Sequence record: OR062527
Direction: 5' to 3' (one strand)
Source: Escherichia phage vB_EcoM_11B_SA_NWU
Length of the DNA stretch: 64,000 bases
Shown: one piece after another, positions 8,188 through 63,453 of the stretch
How positions within the stretch are numbered: position 1 is the stretch's first letter
Layout: every line of letters starts with the position of its first letter
Program-made: the position numbers and the translations under genes
Notes under the pieces: generated by a model
Databases searched by the model: none
The model's input: the letters and a program-made list of their open reading frames with translations, nothing else
What the model was told of the DNA's origin: nothing

Positions 8188-8211
8188 TTTATTATCCTCA
8201 GTAGCTATGGT

Positions 8212-8244
8212 GTTATAGTACCACAACTAACCGAGGAAGTAAAC
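8212..8244 (-). promoter_or_regulatory. T4-type early promoter
   Basis: GTTTAC, 17 bp spacer, TGGTACTAT. Confidence 0.55.
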
Positions 8245-15494: not shown

Positions 15495-15560
15495 AGTGCT
15501 CTCCTCTATAAGATAATTCTATTATACCATACTCGTTTTGATATGTAAACCATTTAAATG

Positions 15561-15583
15561 AAAAAGGACTCCCGAAGGAGTCC
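15561..15583 (-). terminator. rho-independent terminator after soc (GGACUCC-UUCG-GGAGUCC then U5)
   Basis: 7-bp GC-rich stem, UUCG loop, UUUUUC on the minus-strand transcript. Confidence 0.65.
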
Positions 15584-16598: not shown

Positions 16599-16799
16599 AT
16601 GGTACAAAAATTAATGGCACTTGTTAATGCCATAAAAGGTAATAAAAAACGTATAGCTTTTACTATTTCTGCTATGGTAGGAATTTTACTCTGGAACTTT
16701 ATTCTATCACCAATTGCAATTGCGCATGGTGTTAATATTCCAGTAGTTACTCTTGATACATTCGTAGATTTAGCATTTGCTTTAGTTGGGTTAATTTAA
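16599..16799 (+). CDS. small hydrophobic membrane protein (66 aa) on the opposite strand, convergent with gene 61
   Basis: Only plus-strand ORF filling an otherwise gene-free gap (16528-16795); AAGGAGG Shine-Dalgarno 4 nt before ATG; two predicted transmembrane segments. Confidence 0.45.
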   Translation: MVQKLMALVNAIKGNKKRIAFTISAMVGILLWNFILSPIAIAHGVNIPVVTLDTFVDLAFALVGLI

Positions 16800-17824
16800 A
16801 TCTTAGCATATTTAGATAGCCGCATTTTAGCCATCAACCCCTGGGCAATATTATTTTTCATATATTCCATAATTTGTTCAGGGGTTGCACCTTCCTTTCT
16901 AATCATATCATTAACATCTTTTGATTTCCAGGGAGATTTATCCCAAAACATAACCCTTTCTCCTGCATCAACTAATTTAGTCATTCGCTTAATAGTGTCA
17001 GGATGACGAGGTTCATTATCTAAGACCCACACACGCCTATCTTTAAATGGAACAACTTCTAGGTCTAATTGACCGCCCGTAATAGCTATACCATTTTCAA
17101 TAAAAAGTGAATCTATAGGTCCTTCTAGAACATATACATCGCCATCTTTAACTCGTTCGACTCCATATATTTTTGTTGCCTCAGGATAAGCTTTAATGGT
17201 GATATATTTTTGAGGAGCATCTTTCTTTAATGCACGTCCTTGAAAAGACTCAGCTTTTCCATTAGCATTATAAATTGGAATAACAAGACGAGGCTCAGAA
17301 ATTTCCTTTTTGTATGTTCCCGGTGCTATGCTATTAACTAATTTAGGCCATTCGGTTGTAAACCAAAGATATTTCCATTTATCCTTTGGAATACAACGAG
17401 CTTTTACATATTTTATAATTGGATGGTCTTCCGCCAGTTTATCTAATCTAACACATGACGGAAGAGATTTAATTATTTTCTTCTCAGGTTGTTTAGGAAG
17501 TTCTTTAGGTTTTTCTACTGGACGACTTTTACCTTTTTCTTTTCTTATTTCAAAGATATACTCACGATATAAATCAGGTTCAAACTCCTTTAAATATATT
17601 CCGATTGGTGCGTGATAGTTACAGTTATAACAATGAATATTTCCTTCATTATTATCACCATAATACCATCCACGAGCTTTATTCTGATCGGTTTTTGAAT
17701 CTCCACAAACGGGGCATCTAAACCGCAATTTAAAAGTTGAACTATTATTTACTTGTGTGAATTTAGGTAAATGAGCCAATGCACGATACGCAAACTCATT
17801 ATCAATCCAAGGTATTGATGACAT
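16796..17824 (-). CDS. 61: DNA primase gp61 (342 aa)
   Basis: Zinc-finger CPVCGD...CYNC; length 342 aa as in T4 gp61; adjacent to the 41 region. Confidence 0.9.
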   Translation of the reverse strand: MSSIPWIDNEFAYRALAHLPKFTQVNNSSTFKLRFRCPVCGDSKTDQNKARGWYYGDNNEGNIHCYNCNYHAPIGIYLKEFEPDLYREYIFEIRKEKGKSRPVEKPKELPKQPEKKIIKSLPSCVRLDKLAEDHPIIKYVKARCIPKDKWKYLWFTTEWPKLVNSIAPGTYKKEISEPRLVIPIYNANGKAESFQGRALKKDAPQKYITIKAYPEATKIYGVERVKDGDVYVLEGPIDSLFIENGIAITGGQLDLEVVPFKDRRVWVLDNEPRHPDTIKRMTKLVDAGERVMFWDKSPWKSKDVNDMIRKEGATPEQIMEYMKNNIAQGLMAKMRLSKYAKI

Positions 17825-17826
17825 TT

Positions 17827-17991
17827 TTACTCTTCTTTTTCTTTAGATTCCTCTTTTTTCTTTTTAGGAATCTGTTCAGGACCTTTATTTACTACAGCCC
17901 CTGACGTTGTTCCAGTAGAGATATTTTCAGGATTACCACCTGAATCTCCAGCGACCATATCTTCTTTAATAAATTCTTTATATGTTTTCAT
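17827..17991 (-). CDS. micro-ORF (54 aa) with capsid-targeting-sequence-like N-terminus MKTYKEFIKE and Lys/Glu-rich tail
   Basis: Hand-translated; AGAGGT Shine-Dalgarno; N-terminus resembles the internal-protein CTS MKTYQEFIAE. Confidence 0.45.
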   Translation of the reverse strand: MKTYKEFIKEDMVAGDSGGNPENISTGTTSGAVVNKGPEQIPKKKKEESKEKEE

Positions 17992-18036
17992 ATTAACCTC
18001 TATTCATAAAAGCATTAAAAATTTGGTCATCAATAG
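17989..18036. repeat. direct repeat copy 1 (about 48 bp, roughly 94% identical to copy 2)
   Basis: catattaacct(c/t)tattcataaaagcattaaaaatttg...caataga spans the 61.1-like C-terminus, stop, ribosome-binding site and next ATG. Confidence 0.7.
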
Positions 18037-18349
18037 ATGGCGCAGTAATATTTTCTGCATCATTTAGCAAATCATTAATTTCATCAGATAGCATAACACA
18101 TGTACCTTTATTTCCTGTAATTGTTACTGCACAATTACGAACGTTTTCTTTATCAAATTTTAGGTTAATATTTTCGTAGTGAAAATCCTTTAATGCCGAA
18201 TATATCTTTAAAATGAAATTGTCTTTTACTACAATAAACCCAACCTCACTATTAAAACGCGGTTCATGGAAACTGTAATAAACCTTTTCATCTATAAAAT
18301 CGTATGAAATTTTTTCCATTTTTAAATATGAAAATTCAGAACTATACAT
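17993..18349 (-). CDS. 61.1-like protein (118 aa)
   Basis: Minus-strand ORF; C-terminal 14 codons and the downstream junction duplicated at the end of the next gene. Confidence 0.55.
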   Translation of the reverse strand: MYSSEFSYLKMEKISYDFIDEKVYYSFHEPRFNSEVGFIVVKDNFILKIYSALKDFHYENINLKFDKENVRNCAVTITGNKGTCVMLSDEINDLLNDAENITAPSIDDQIFNAFMNRG

Positions 18350-18394
18350 ATTAACCTTTATTCATAAAAGCATTAAAAATTTGATCGTCAATAG
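18347..18394. repeat. direct repeat copy 2
   Basis: Same junction module at the 61.2-like C-terminus. Confidence 0.7.
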
Positions 18395-18983
18395 AAACTT
18401 TTACTTTAGGCTGTTCTTCAAACGGTAATTCATATCCACATATTACAATTTTGTGATCGATACCAAAATACACAGAAGCAATATTATTAATATTATTTTC
18501 AGTGAAATCTAAATCAACATCAATATCTTTTTGACTAACGCTCAAAGGATAATTAATACGAATAATTCGATTATCTTTAACAAAGATTCCACCGACATAC
18601 TCTGTGCTGCGTTTAAAGTTTACACGTTTCCTAAATGAAAAATATTCAGGTTCTTTATGGGCTCGACTCATAGGACTTAAAGTGTATTCCGAATATGAAA
18701 TATCAAATCCTACACCTTCAATATGAGCCAAAGTGTCATGATTAAACCAATTATAATCGTATGCCAAATCCATTAAATTGTAATATGTGAAAGGCACCGG
18801 ATTAACATCATATGTTGTACCTTTAAAATCTGCCCAGGCAACGATTTCGTTATCTTTAACAATTACAAAAATTGTGCCAATAAGATATCCACGGTTATTT
18901 TCATCAGGCGTTATATTATAACATTGTGCATCAGGAAATTTACCGTATTTAAACGGTGGATTTTTGTGCATATAATAAATCAT
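18351..18983 (-). CDS. 61.2-like protein (210 aa); position of T4 anti-DarT factor AdfA
   Basis: Synteny between 61 and sp; C-terminus IDDQIFNAFMNKG shared with the 61.1-like ORF. Confidence 0.5.
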   Translation of the reverse strand: MIYYMHKNPPFKYGKFPDAQCYNITPDENNRGYLIGTIFVIVKDNEIVAWADFKGTTYDVNPVPFTYYNLMDLAYDYNWFNHDTLAHIEGVGFDISYSEYTLSPMSRAHKEPEYFSFRKRVNFKRSTEYVGGIFVKDNRIIRINYPLSVSQKDIDVDLDFTENNINNIASVYFGIDHKIVICGYELPFEEQPKVKVSIDDQIFNAFMNKG

Positions 18984-18984
18984 A

Positions 18985-19278
18985 TTATTCGCCTGTGATT
19001 TCGGTTACGATATTTTTGTTATTAAAGTTTTTATCGCAATACAGAACATAATTATACTGCATTACTCCACCAGATTTAAGCTGTTTTTGCACTTCGGCTT
19101 TCATTTCAGGACGATCGCGCTCAACAATATTCATAATATCTGCTTCAATCTGGGTTTCAACCTCAGTCTGATCTGCAGTCATAGACCATTCACACAAATC
19201 TTTATCATAACCTGCCATAGCAGGCTGAGCAGCACAAGAAGCTAAAGCAAAAATTGTAGCAAAGATAAATTTTTTCAT
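18985..19278 (-). CDS. sp: Spackle periplasmic protein (97 aa)
   Basis: Signal peptide MKKFIFATIFALASCAAQPAMA; 97 aa; synteny with T4 61.3/sp; early promoter upstream. Confidence 0.8.
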   Translation of the reverse strand: MKKFIFATIFALASCAAQPAMAGYDKDLCEWSMTADQTEVETQIEADIMNIVERDRPEMKAEVQKQLKSGGVMQYNYVLYCDKNFNNKNIVTEITGE

Positions 19279-19299
19279 GATAATCTCCTCAGTAGTTTA

Positions 19300-19336
19300 T
19301 GTTTATATAGTATCTCAATTTCCAACAAAAGTAAAC
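19300..19336 (-). promoter_or_regulatory. T4-type early promoter upstream of sp
   Basis: GTTTACTTTTGTTGGAAATTGAGATACTAT. Confidence 0.55.
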
Positions 19337-19338
19337 AG

Positions 19339-19596
19339 TTATTTTAAAACTTCTGCGTAATCACATGTTACAAACTGTTTCTCTAGCTTGGCGATTTTAC
19401 GAAAGTATCTTTTACATTGACGAATCTGTCGCTTAGTAGGGCGCACAGCAAACTTAATAAATTCCACTCGACCAAATGGAGGACTTTCTTCTGTTGGAAT
19501 ATCTAACACCAATTCCCACGTATCTGCAATAAGTGCTTTGAATTGAGTATTTTTTCTGACACTATACGGAGTAGGCTTAAATAAAACTATATGCAT
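19339..19596 (-). CDS. 61.4-like small basic protein (85 aa; TifA position)
   Basis: Internal ATG 1 nt after the dmd stop with a GAGGA Shine-Dalgarno; adjacent to dmd as T4 61.4. Confidence 0.5.
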   Translation of the reverse strand: MHIVLFKPTPYSVRKNTQFKALIADTWELVLDIPTEESPPFGRVEFIKFAVRPTKRQIRQCKRYFRKIAKLEKQFVTCDYAEVLK

Positions 19597-19597
19597 A

Positions 19598-19780
19598 TTA
19601 TCCTCGGCAATCTGCTTCACACACTTTCTTGTCATCAATGAAAGCTTTAACTAATGCTTTATTAACTTCAGCATATTGAGTAGTAGCCCATTGAACGTCA
19701 TCTTTCATCATTGTGGTTTCTTTAGTAAACATGCTTTCATTCTTAAACCACCCCATAAAAACTACCTTTACCAATTCCAT
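19598..19780 (-). CDS. dmd: Dmd antitoxin (discriminator of mRNA degradation), 60 aa
   Basis: 60-aa sequence MELVKVVFMGWFKNESMFTKE... matches T4 Dmd (61.5) as recalled; early promoter upstream. Confidence 0.85.
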   Translation of the reverse strand: MELVKVVFMGWFKNESMFTKETTMMKDDVQWATTQYAEVNKALVKAFIDDKKVCEADCRG

Positions 19781-19804
19781 AACAATCTCCTCATTTAACC
19801 AACA

Positions 19805-19839
19805 AGACTACTATACCATAGTCTTGTCAGCTTGTAAAC
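19805..19839 (-). promoter_or_regulatory. T4-type early promoter upstream of dmd
   Basis: GTTTACAAGCTGACAAGACTATGGTATAGT; -10 between CAAGACTA/TAGTCTTG inverted repeats. Confidence 0.55.
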
Positions 19840-21266
19840 TAAAATTTTAATTCATTTGCCAAAGCATCTAACTGAGCTCGAGCTGATTCGTTTCTTTGAT
19901 AGCGATTCTGTTCAGCCTGAATCTGTTGTGAACCTGCTACTTCACTCACTTCAGTTGGAGTAGAATCTTGTTCAATTTCTACCCATTTCTGATTTCCTTT
20001 TTGAACACCCATCAAAAACTTATTCCACTTATTCTTATCACCATATCGTGATTTGATTTGCTTAATGAGTTGTTGTTCAGCAGCTGCTAACTCTTCAGTT
20101 TCAATGACCGCAAGCATAAAATCAGCTGTTGCTGGAAGACCAGCAGATTCTGCGATATCACTCATGTTAACATCAGAAGAGTCCCAAGCTTGTTTACCAA
20201 CCTGTGCTGCAGTCCAAAGAACAGTTTCGGTTTCAACAGCCAGAGCACGTAATTCCTCTGCAATAGCTTTAACAGTTGTGTAACTATTTTCTGAATAAAC
20301 TCTAATGCGGCAAGATTTACAAATACCTAGATAGTCGACAATAATAATTGTTGGAACAAAATTCTTTTTGAGCTTCAATTCATTCAAGAGAGACCTGAAT
20401 GTGTTAGCATCTGCCCCACCAGTGGGATACTGTTTAACGATTAAACGACCGAGGGTAGATTTCTCACGCCATTTTTCCATTTTTCCTTTATACTCAGCGT
20501 AAGAAATATGTCCATCATCAATATCATCAAGAGAAACATCGAGCATATTAGCATCAATACGTTTAGCGCAGACTTCTTCTGCCATTTCCATAGAGATATA
20601 AAGAACGTTATGACCAAGCTGCAAATAATCTGCTGCTAATGAACAAAGTCCTAATGATTTACCAACGTTAACGCCAGCCATTAAAACGTTCAGTGTTCCT
20701 GTCTCAGCTCCGCCTTTAGTAATTTTGTTTAGAATTCTGAGTTTAAATGGAACTTTACGAGCTTTATTCATATAAGATAGCCAGCGTGCTTCATAGTCAT
20801 CCATCCAATCATGACCAACGTAGCTATCAAATGAAATTGATAATGCTTGACGCATGATGTCAGGAATAGCACCAACATCCGGCATTTTCTTATTTCGTTT
20901 TTCTGGAGGAAGCTCAGCATTAGTTTGAATTTCAATTATTTTAGACGTAGCATTAAACATCGCCCTTTGCTGAACATATTTTTCTGTTTCTTTTACTAAC
21001 CAGCTGTGGTCTTCTGGAGAATCAGCCAGTTTTGAAATAAGTGTTTTTACACCAGAATATTCTGTTTCAGTAAATGAACTATTTTCTAATGCAACATTTA
21101 ACGCATTAATAGATGGAACGCTATGATACTCATTAACATGAGATTTAATTAATTTGAATGTATTTTTAGCTGGACCACTTTCAAAATATTCTGAATCCAT
21201 ATATGGCCAAACTTTTGAAAAATAAGCTTGATCAAATATGAGATGAGAAAGAATAATTTCTACCAC
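19839..21266 (-). CDS. 41: replicative DNA helicase gp41 (475 aa)
   Basis: DnaB-family Walker A GVNVGKS; 475 aa; N-terminus MVEIILSHLIFDQAYF matches T4 gp41 as recalled. Confidence 0.9.
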   Translation of the reverse strand: MVEIILSHLIFDQAYFSKVWPYMDSEYFESGPAKNTFKLIKSHVNEYHSVPSINALNVALENSSFTETEYSGVKTLISKLADSPEDHSWLVKETEKYVQQRAMFNATSKIIEIQTNAELPPEKRNKKMPDVGAIPDIMRQALSISFDSYVGHDWMDDYEARWLSYMNKARKVPFKLRILNKITKGGAETGTLNVLMAGVNVGKSLGLCSLAADYLQLGHNVLYISMEMAEEVCAKRIDANMLDVSLDDIDDGHISYAEYKGKMEKWREKSTLGRLIVKQYPTGGADANTFRSLLNELKLKKNFVPTIIIVDYLGICKSCRIRVYSENSYTTVKAIAEELRALAVETETVLWTAAQVGKQAWDSSDVNMSDIAESAGLPATADFMLAVIETEELAAAEQQLIKQIKSRYGDKNKWNKFLMGVQKGNQKWVEIEQDSTPTEVSEVAGSQQIQAEQNRYQRNESARAQLDALANELKF

Positions 21267-47565: not shown

Positions 47566-47596
47566 CATTATACCACATCCTTGTGGCGAAGTAAAC
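47566..47596 (-). promoter_or_regulatory. T4-type early promoter, near-copy of the one at 2417-2448
   Basis: GTTTACTTCGCCACAAGGATGTGGTATAAT; shares CCACAAGGATGTGGTA with the rIIA.1 promoter. Confidence 0.55.
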
Positions 47597-48615
47597 TAGT
47601 TTAGTGCATTTAGTGCGTTGTTCAATTTAGAACGTTGCTTCGTGAGATTTTTTACTTTTTCTTGAGCTTTTTCTAGCATCTTTTCAGCTTCTAACGCTTC
47701 ATTAGTTGCTTTAACGAGTTCATCATCTACTGCCTTGATAGACTTCTCAATCGCATCCGCGTGCCATTTTTCAACAGGTTTAAGACTAGGATTTTCAACA
47801 GGAAGAAAATTCACTTTATTAAATTTCCATGCATCTTTATTACCTGAACTATACATCCAAAATTTAGGATCGTTTGATGAGCAATTAGATAAATTTAAGT
47901 TATCTTGTACTTCCTGCTTTTTCTCTTGCGTGACTTCGTCTTTTCTCAAAAAATCATATTTAAATGAAACGATCATATCAAGTTCATATGTTGTTGTATG
48001 TTCCCAATTTCGCTCAAAACGAGGTAAAATCTTAGATTGAACAGCAGCAACAACATCCATATACTTAAATGCTTCTGTCAGCTGTGATTTAAGACATTCA
48101 CAAATTGAACGAGAATTTTTAGTATTAGGTTTAAAGCTAATTCGTGCAGTTCTATTATTTTCTTTAGATGGTCTTACTTCCATTTGAAGAGTATAACCAT
48201 CAAATTTCAGATTCTTTAAGTTAATATCAGAACCTTTTAATCGACTAGCAGTAGACAAAATTTGCTTTAATTGTTTACGGAATAGAGCAATAAATCTCCA
48301 TTCAAGACGATAATGATTTGGATTAAAAAATCCTGTTGATAAATCAACCTTACTCTGACCAACGCCTTGAACAAATAGAGGATTTTTATAATCAATAGTT
48401 TTACAGAAATCGGTGAGCTGCTCACGAGCAGTCATTTGTGTAATATATCCCGCTTTACTAAAATGACGTAACCATTCACTGCTATTCATATACTTAAAGT
48501 GAATGGAACTATTAACTCTATCAGGGTCTAAATTATTTTGGCACAAAAATGTCATAACATTACGGGTATAGCTGGCATTACGAACCATATCTTCAATTTG
48601 AGAACGAGTTTTCAT
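47596..48615 (-). CDS. nrdC-block protein with C-terminal coiled coil (339 aa)
   Basis: N-terminus MKTRSQ resembles that of the 309-aa ORF (MKTRKH). Confidence 0.6.
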   Translation of the reverse strand: MKTRSQIEDMVRNASYTRNVMTFLCQNNLDPDRVNSSIHFKYMNSSEWLRHFSKAGYITQMTAREQLTDFCKTIDYKNPLFVQGVGQSKVDLSTGFFNPNHYRLEWRFIALFRKQLKQILSTASRLKGSDINLKNLKFDGYTLQMEVRPSKENNRTARISFKPNTKNSRSICECLKSQLTEAFKYMDVVAAVQSKILPRFERNWEHTTTYELDMIVSFKYDFLRKDEVTQEKKQEVQDNLNLSNCSSNDPKFWMYSSGNKDAWKFNKVNFLPVENPSLKPVEKWHADAIEKSIKAVDDELVKATNEALEAEKMLEKAQEKVKNLTKQRSKLNNALNALN

Positions 48616-55603: not shown

Positions 55604-55624
55604 TCTCTTCTCCTTGGCAGTTGA

Positions 55625-55661
55625 CAAGATTACTATACCATAACCTTGCCAACTTGTAAAC
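55625..55661 (-). promoter_or_regulatory. T4-type early promoter
   Basis: GTTTACAAGTTGGCAAGGTTATGGTATAGT. Confidence 0.5.
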
Positions 55662-56415: not shown

Positions 56416-56437
56416 GATGTTCTCCTCTTTATCTGAT

Positions 56438-56473
56438 AGTTGTATAGTACCACAGCTCAAACGGAAAGTAAAC
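56438..56473 (-). promoter_or_regulatory. T4-type early promoter
   Basis: GTTTACTTTCCGTTTGAGCTGTGGTACTATAC. Confidence 0.5.
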
Positions 56474-56482
56474 CGGTAAAAT

Positions 56483-56506
56483 GAAAAAAGTCTCCCGAAG
56501 GAGACT
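56483..56506 (-). terminator. rho-independent terminator after rI.-1
   Basis: AGUCUCC-UUCG-GGAGACU then UUUUUUCAUUUU. Confidence 0.7.
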
Positions 56507-62979: not shown

Positions 62980-63453
62980 TTATTTAAATGATTTGACGTA
63001 CTGAACAGAACCTTTACTATTCACAAAGGCAATTTTACCGTTTTTGTTATACATTGTGGCAGTACGTTGATAGCCATAAGTTTGTTTACCAGATTGATAA
63101 CCAACTAATGCAAAATTATCTTCACCCATTTTATTCTGTTTAGCGCGAATGCGTTCATGACCGTGAGCCATAAGAACCTTAGCATCACCAGTTGCAATGG
63201 ATCTACGAGTTTTTTCATCTTCAACTGTATTAACAAAGTCGTCAAATGAATCAAATTTAGCATGAGATTTATTATACAGTTTTCCATCTACTGCATAATT
63301 ATATCCCTGTACATCCATCTCAACTTCTGTACCATCATCCAATACAGCAGTGATTTTCTGTCCTTTTTTAAATTTCAAAAGATCAGTAAAAGATTCAGCA
63401 ATAATTTGAGAATTAATAGCTGCTTCAGTAATAAATTCTTGATATGTTTTCAT
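62980..63453 (-). CDS. capsid internal protein (IPIII-like, 157 aa) with capsid-targeting sequence
   Basis: N-terminus MKTYQEFITE matches the internal-protein CTS; immediately upstream of e as ipIII is in T4. Confidence 0.7.
   Translation of the reverse strand: MKTYQEFITEAAINSQIIAESFTDLLKFKKGQKITAVLDDGTEVEMDVQGYNYAVDGKLYNKSHAKFDSFDDFVNTVEDEKTRRSIATGDAKVLMAHGHERIRAKQNKMGEDNFALVGYQSGKQTYGYQRTATMYNKNGKIAFVNSKGSVQYVKSFK

Follow-up and report, generated by a model that had tools for sequence, protein, structure and literature searches.

Tandem AdfA-family genes of T4-like phages share a conserved 3' end that probably doubles as a recombination substrate

Introduction

In lambdoid phages, short conserved sequences at gene boundaries have been proposed to guide the exchange of the modules that flank them. 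Most of these sequences are non-coding and join one functional module to another; they are not the shared C-terminus of one paralogous family.

T4-type phages carry mobile regulatory cassettes called PeSLs (Arbiol et al., 2010, PMC2839356; PMC4122927). PeSLs are intergenic elements of about 100 bp that combine a sigma-70 early promoter with a terminator stem-loop, and they are dispersed in hyperplastic regions. They bear expression signals for the next gene, and where one phage has a gene between two such cassettes, a close relative may have just one cassette in its place. Additionally, T4 has been shown experimentally to delete and tandemly amplify DNA at chance homologies of 6-10 bp under laboratory selection, and the repeat-bounded deletions and amplifications leave one copy of the repeat (Srikant et al., 2022, PMC9391042). 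One site of these events, dmd-tifA, lies less than 2 kb from the repeat described here. The slot between sp and gene 61, which holds this repeat, lies in a region that has been proposed as an anti-toxin-antitoxin (anti-TA) island (PMC9391042).

The closest described protein is AdfA (anti-DarT factor A; gp61.2 of T4 and RB69, Pfam PF23813). At RB69 position 164 of this protein, the histidine of T4 enables neutralization of DarT1, whereas the arginine of RB69 blocks it (R164H), and phage T2 is said to 'naturally lack' an adfA homologue (PMC11257639). Here we describe a T4-like locus in which a full-length adfA gene is followed by a shorter gene that shares its C-terminal domain, its tail and its slot but has no N-terminal domain, and in which the ends of both genes form a direct repeat.

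Results

The locus belongs to a T4-like phage of the genus Tequatrovirus, whose genome has its best match in phage JK1 (99.2%); 664 phage records match. We refer to the whole stretch of DNA that was analysed, 64,000 nucleotides, as the window. On the minus strand the genes follow in the order 41 (helicase), dmd, 61.4 (tifA), sp, a 210-aa gene, a 118-aa gene, 61.1 and 61 (primase) (Table 1). Locus comparisons place the AdfA family between sp and gene 61 in Tevenvirinae, and this is where the two genes of the window are found.

Table 1. Positions of the genes, repeat copies and sequence motifs considered in this study, in window coordinates.
Feature	Position	Strand	Remarks
sp (Spackle)	18985..19278	-	upstream border of the variable slot; Pfam T4_Spackle, E 3.5e-45
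adfA (T4 gene 61.2, anti-DarT factor A), 210 aa	18351..18983	-	Pfam PF23813
118-aa short AdfA paralogue ('B')	17993..18349	-	phrog_4122; RB32ORF033c-like
gene 61.1, 54 aa	17827..17991	-	true 61.1 orthologue; phrog_1823; translationally coupled to the upstream gene
gene 61 (DNA primase)	16796..17824	-	conserved downstream anchor
repeat copy 1	17989..18037	-	last 14 codons of the 118-aa gene (SIDDQIFNAFMNRG), TAA, GAGG, ATG of 61.1
repeat copy 2	18347..18395	-	last 14 codons of adfA (SIDDQIFNAFMNKG), TAA, weaker AAGG, ATG of the 118-aa gene
358-bp indel unit (short-gene body plus one repeat copy)	18038..18395	-	17989-18346 is equivalent; missing from T4-type genomes
putative MotA-type middle-promoter-like motif in copy 1	17990..18016	-	AATGCTTTT, 12 nt, TAATAT
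putative promoter-like motif in copy 2	18348..18374	-	identical to that in copy 1
early-promoter-like repeats	19802-19839, 55624-55661, 8207-8244, 56436-56473		
early-promoter-like repeats	2418-2449, 47567-47598, 15545-15580, 56468-56503		

The 210-aa protein is a full-length AdfA. It matches PF23813 from position 1 to 211 of 211 (461.7 bits, E 3.2e-139), has the full two-domain architecture of the family (about 208-216 aa), and is 81% identical to the RB69 protein and 73% identical to that of T4. The allele is a mosaic, with an RB69-like N-terminal half and a T4-like C-terminal half. Position 164 is occupied by Asn (NNINNIAS), and Asn also stands at the aligned position of the 118-aa protein; judged from this alignment, both proteins lack the His that enables DarT1 neutralization. 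A PDB sequence search with AdfA returned nothing relevant (best E 0.35), and a Foldseek search of the AdfA model against the PDB gave no match at E <= 0.001, with TM-scores below 0.25.

A first-pass annotation of the window had described two 48-bp segments, roughly 94% identical and about 358 bp apart, each covering the last codons of a gene, its stop, the ribosome-binding site and the next ATG. A repeat search of the window bears this description out: it found a two-copy direct repeat of 49 nt, with 46/49 identical positions (94%) and a start-to-start distance of 358. Read on the minus strand, the copies are TCTATTGATGACCAAATTTTTAATGCTTTTATGAATAGAGGTTAATATG and TCTATTGACGATCAAATTTTTAATGCTTTTATGAATAAAGGTTAATATG. 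Both hold the 14 codons for SIDDQIFNAFMN[R/K]G and the stop codon TAA. A single base then separates the stop from the ATG that opens the following gene, and a Shine-Dalgarno sequence lies 5 nt upstream of that ATG. The three differing nucleotides change GAT GAC of copy 1 into GAC GAT in copy 2, which is synonymous, and AGA into AAA, which exchanges R for K. A degenerate back-translation of DDQIFNAFM, allowing up to three mismatches, has exactly two sites in the 64 kb, and 100 shuffles expect 0.00. The first-pass annotation had named an assembly artefact as the result that would undo its finding. Both an artefact and chance similarity are already refuted, by the shuffles and by 157 independently sequenced phage genome records that contain the contiguous two-copy arrangement.

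In two-gene phages of two genera, the copy at the internal junction (window 18347-18359, minus strand; loci L029, L031, L009 and L053) usually has a weakened Shine-Dalgarno sequence or altered last codons (AAAGGT, AGAGAT, or a TAG stop), and the copy that adjoins the conserved downstream gene retains GAGGT. Such a weakened internal junction might adjust how strongly the short gene is expressed, or reduce the identity of the repeats. At L040 (3370-3390), where the short paralogue is divergent, its tail is followed by two tandem copies of the 9-mer AGAGGCTAA (AGAGGCTAAAGAGGCTAA), a minor slip at the same junction.

The identity of the genes on either side of the repeat needs correction. The label '61.1-like' was wrong, the gene names having been shifted by one: the real 61.1 is the 54-aa gene whose ATG ends copy 1. 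The two proteins that share the tail had also been called otherwise unrelated, yet they are paralogues. BLASTP aligns them with 37% identity over 106 aa (E 6e-11). The 118-aa protein scores 31.9 bits against Pfam AdfA, above the curated cut-off of 27 bits, at profile positions 113-211 only, and the two PHROGs concerned, phrog_3781 and phrog_4122, both families of unknown function, cross-match over the domain. The short protein corresponds to roughly residues 63-210 of AdfA; it lacks the N-terminal domain and consists of one domain plus the tail. Because the two proteins are paralogues, the shared tail is the best-conserved part of a shared domain and not a graft.

The 118-aa ORF has no counterpart in T4. 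Between orthologues its dN/dS is 0.09-0.33, which indicates purifying selection, and AlphaFold2 predicts a compact domain of beta-sheet plus helices (pLDDT 82.7); we therefore regard the short gene as real. It appears to be undescribed, as does the 145-aa 'type C' gene considered below. In Shigella phage ESh36 (L033, 1501-1856; a record labelled UNVERIFIED), a frameshift in the short gene puts its tail out of frame; the gene is a pseudogene there, or the sequence contains an error.

The tail is retained throughout the family. When 1.84 billion representative proteins were searched exhaustively with HMMER, only five real AdfA-family clusters emerged, all from T4-like phages and with their genes directly after sp. 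All five keep DDQIFNAFM, ending in DDQIFNAFM(N/K)RG, even cluster P0011, whose body is barely recognisable (E 1.4e-4). Two further candidates, P0009 and P0010, are giant repetitive eukaryotic proteins and were rejected as summed low-complexity matches; word-indexed homologue searches found close relatives only. In a sample anchored on Spackle, and thus independent of the tail, sp is followed directly by one tail-bearing gene or by two in 16 of 19 IMG/VR loci, and the three loci that have none are the most divergent. The tail itself served as the query through which some of the tails were collected, but the Spackle-anchored and HMM-based samples agree with them. Contigs of about 170 kb hold one or two copies of the tail, located in the sp-61 locus wherever the context was read.

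Across AdfA, the short paralogue and type C, which represent three PHROG families and several genera, DDQIFNAFM is invariant within the consensus (S/V/T)(I/V)DDQIFNAFM(N/K)(R/K)(G/D). The DNA that encodes it varies silently between lineages (GAT/GAC, CAA/CAG, ATT/ATA, GCT/GCC/GCA, TTT/TTC and AGA/CGA) and the peptide is unchanged; thus, selection acts on the protein. The last codons serve the following gene as well, since (A/C)GA GGT TAA N ATG also provides its Shine-Dalgarno sequence and stop-start coupling. In the AlphaFold2 models of both proteins, the tail is predicted with low confidence (pLDDT about 50-55) as a short helix that sits outside the confident core, behind a disordered linker of variable length. 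These models are compatible with a tethered interaction motif; the low pLDDT may simply reflect the shallow alignments of 11-12 sequences.

Relatives were also compared for other cargo between the same junctions, as the first-pass annotation had suggested, and such cargo is present in other genera. In Gaprivervirus and related phages, the sp-61 slot is occupied by the type C gene (145 aa, phrog_8539). In profile-profile alignment (hhalign), type C aligns with the AdfA family over the 16-residue tail only, and in PHROGs over the last 28 residues. Type C is the evidence in favour of the first-pass proposal that unrelated genes share one tail through recombination at a junction cassette, in which case the tail would be a scar of that event. 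The idea of unrelated bodies with a common tail may indeed hold literally in the type C genera, going by these profiles. However, the pair in the window is homologous over about 100 residues, remote homology of the type C body is possible given how shallow its profile is (Neff 1.09), and the peptide is kept while its silent sites drift, unlike a neutral scar. We consider this origin of the tail very improbable.

The gene after the last tail varies by genus: it is 61.1 in Tequatrovirus, a 65-aa gene beginning MTTAICTGSK in RB69-like phages (L028, 2653-3336) and a 73-aa gene beginning MFVLTQFSK in Gaprivervirus-like phages (L045-L055). The junction is therefore conserved while both its neighbours vary.

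Among public phage genomes the AdfA family occurs in three arrangements, each of them common. Both genes are contiguous, as in the window, in the 157 records mentioned above. The short gene alone is found in 141 records, which an AdfA query matches at less than 60% identity. Full-length adfA in any arrangement is found in 486 records; 143 of these are RB69-like records with another downstream gene, which leaves about 186 adfA-only Tequatrovirus records (486 − 143 − 157). These counts were not taken from junction-spanning blastn, in which alignments joined pieces across the inserted gene at T4-type and T2-type junctions. The short gene lies downstream of all three adfA allele types, the T4-like, the RB33-like and the RB69-like mosaic of the window.

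The adfA-only and two-gene arrangements differ by exactly one repeat unit. The sole adfA/61.1 junction of T4 is the copy-1 form of the 49-mer, base for base, with adfA and 61.1 on either side; T4 is therefore the window minus one 358-bp repeat unit. Phages EC.W13-3 (both genes) and KRT47 (adfA only) differ by a single 358-nt gap that is located in the repeat; the aligned flanks, of 882 nt and 960 nt, are 98.8% and 99.3% identical, respectively. In another genus, L053 (type C, B, next gene) and L054 (type C, next gene) differ by a 361-nt gap between the two tails. In both genera, one copy is left at the junction. The claim of module shuffling made in the first-pass annotation can be kept in so far as the repeat delimits a module that is present in some relatives and absent from others; it fails in so far as the tail, at least in this pair, was not grafted onto foreign bodies.

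In T2, the short gene stands alone after sp as the sole family member. The sp/B junctions of T2-type phages keep TAGAGGTTAGT. This match to the final codons of a tail suggests, from the sequence of the junctions, that adfA was deleted from a two-gene ancestor. The spacer at these junctions, TTAGAGGTTAGT (L027, 2061-2072, which is T2; also L008 and L034), resembles a last-codon remnant of an AdfA-type tail. A clean microhomology deletion at the T2 sp/B junction was rejected, as there are three extra bases compared with a TGAATA-mediated join.

The similarity of the two tails could have two sources, selection and exchange between the copies. In the window pair, the body (78 codons) is 44.9% identical in nucleotides and 33% identical in amino acids, and uses the same codon at 8 of 26 identical residues. 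The tail (14 codons) is 92.9% identical in nucleotides and 13/14 in amino acids, and uses the same codon at 10 of 12 identical residues. The contrast in codon identity between tail and body is significant (Fisher P = 0.0045), for this one pair with only 12 tail codons. If selection alone were at work, the need for the peptide and the ribosome-binding site, together with T4 codon bias, would explain the likeness, and the indels would have arisen and spread by other routes, without the repeat. The invariance of the peptide in three PHROG families and several genera amid silent variation fits this explanation. Codon usage alone predicts 6.7 of the 12 same codons in the tail, compared with 10 observed (P = 0.04). 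Additionally, the two tails of Gaprivervirus phage EAWsc9, counted over the tails, share 6/10 codons at identical residues and show no silent-site excess; homogenization is therefore not general. What speaks against selection alone is the contrast between tail and body, the exact placement of the indel boundaries within the repeat, both in two genera and between phages that are otherwise nearly identical, and the fact that T4 recombines at far shorter homologies (PMC9391042). We think it unlikely that selection is the whole explanation.

Two loci give hints of conversion, each at few sites. The repeats of ESh36 are identical across the 3' 43 nt and otherwise differ by one silent change in a Ser codon, and at L002 copy-specific variants are shuffled between the repeat copies. 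The single tail of L054 counts against recombination between the copies: it is of the upstream type along its full length, and the crossover would therefore have to fall in the last 7 nt.

The repeat also contains a promoter-like motif, which raises the possibility of a regulatory cassette: a MotA-dependent middle promoter in the tail, analogous to the early promoter and terminator of the mobile PeSLs. Phage Lutter has both copies annotated as 27-nt promoters, an annotation that is probably pattern-based. Compared with the MotA box (a/t)(a/t)(a/t)TGCTTtA (PMC1524935), the motif agrees at 8/9 positions and has a 12-nt spacer and a TAnnnT -10 (TAATAT). The relaxed pattern has 10 matches in the window compared with 2.9 in shuffles, and the topology of the indels fits the PeSL model (PMC2839356). 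However, the strict pattern fails, and silent changes disrupt the GCTT core in RB69 (TGCATT, through GCA) and in Gaprivervirus type C (TGCCTT, through GCC), so the box is not conserved among relatives that encode MotA. The last base of the -10 immediately precedes the G of the next ATG; transcription would therefore begin within the following gene, and the RNA would lack the ribosome-binding site of that gene. The T4 RefSeq and GenBank records have no promoter feature at this junction, and we found no experimental mapping of a middle promoter there in the literature. None of 20 sigma-70 promoter-like sites in 16700-20000 falls in either repeat copy, and the repeat holds no stem-loop and no terminator-like site. 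A regulatory cassette of this kind seems quite improbable to us. An explanation by RNA structure was dropped, since the folds of the two junctions (z-scores -1.65 and -0.02) were no better than shuffles; an Rfam search of the repeat gave no credible match.

Several other features of the window and of related loci were observed. Dispersed repeat families of 32-71 nt resemble, on the minus strand, T4 early promoters (GTTTAC ... TATAGT; Table 1), and some are followed by GC-rich hairpins (CTCCTTCGGGAG), forming PeSL-like cassettes across the window. A 157-aa ORF (62980-63453, minus strand) begins with MKTYQEFITE, and 61.1 begins with MKTYKEFIKE; the first 31 nt of this ORF are 90% identical to the start of 61.1 (17961-17991), which makes it a second shared gene end, this time N-terminal. 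In an IMG/VR phage (L048, 4331-5521), the gene for primase seems to be split and is preceded by an additional ORF of 176 aa, and at L037 (871-1491) an HNH endonuclease gene lies between gene 41 and dmd. These two cases may be insertions of mobile elements near the anti-toxin island.

Discussion

We found that the 49-nt repeat is the shared 3' end of two neighbouring AdfA-family paralogues. Our preferred explanation, which we hold to be likely, is that these tandem paralogues have a conserved 3' end that doubles as a recombination substrate in the anti-toxin island.

The repeat is the 3' end that every AdfA-family member retains, and it has two parts. The first part is the C-terminal peptide, a predicted short helix on a flexible linker of variable length that is kept by purifying selection. 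The second part, AGA GGT TAA T ATG, doubles as the Shine-Dalgarno sequence and the stop-start coupling of the next gene. Once present in two copies, 358 bp apart and 94-100% alike, this end offers homology on which recombination may act. We propose that the copies cross over or undergo gene conversion, which would delete or re-insert the short gene and so give rise to the adfA-only and two-gene arrangements; the same events would keep the tails more alike at silent sites than the bodies. As T4 recombines at 6-10 bp, the 49-bp repeat is a plausible hotspot. The repeat, the paralogy, the conservation of the tail, the three arrangements and their exact boundaries are observations; that the repeat is actually used as a crossover site is what we infer. 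It is also conceivable that indel alleles could spread by crossovers in flanking genes during co-infection, the repeat taking no part. The same holds for the order in which the arrangements arose, by loss or by gain, and for whatever role the tail or the short gene may have.

The resemblance to PeSLs is in the topology and in the cargo of signals: here, too, a gene lies between two short elements in one phage and a close relative has a single element, and the element bears expression signals for the next gene. Unlike PeSLs, the 49-nt repeat is mostly coding, carries a ribosome-binding site and a start codon instead of a sigma-70-like early promoter, has no stem-loop, and is confined to one locus, with two copies in 64 kb instead of many dispersed ones. 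As in the short-homology events of T4, one copy of the repeat is left behind. Those events used chance homologies under laboratory selection, whereas here the homology is 49 bp long, is selected for its peptide, and bounds standing natural polymorphisms. The feature is a variant of the known module shuffling and accessory-gene dynamics of T4. As a sequence feature alone, tandem paralogues with a conserved end are not very surprising.

A bolder reading is that the sp-61 slot is a plug-in site, in which distinct anti-toxin effector bodies (AdfA, the short paralogue and the unrelated-looking type C) carry one tethered C-terminal helix that docks them to a shared partner or gives them some other common address. 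The tail DNA, joined to the ribosome-binding site and ATG of the next gene, would at once be the linker by which cassettes are swapped, stacked or dropped. We regard this as rather unlikely. If it were true, the short paralogue and type C would be undescribed counter-defence factors, and the T2-type phages (141 genomes), which are said to be without adfA, would have a family member after all.

Few phage inhibitors of toxin-antitoxin defence are known, and AdfA is among them. An overlooked second member of its family in the same island, in about 298 sequenced phages, is a concrete candidate counter-defence gene, and type C is a third candidate in other genera. The invariant, apparently tethered tail offers a small testable element for how AdfA-family proteins work. 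Last, a selected coding motif that doubles as a recombination handle would extend the picture of PeSLs and microhomology in the reshuffling of accessory genes in T4-type phages.
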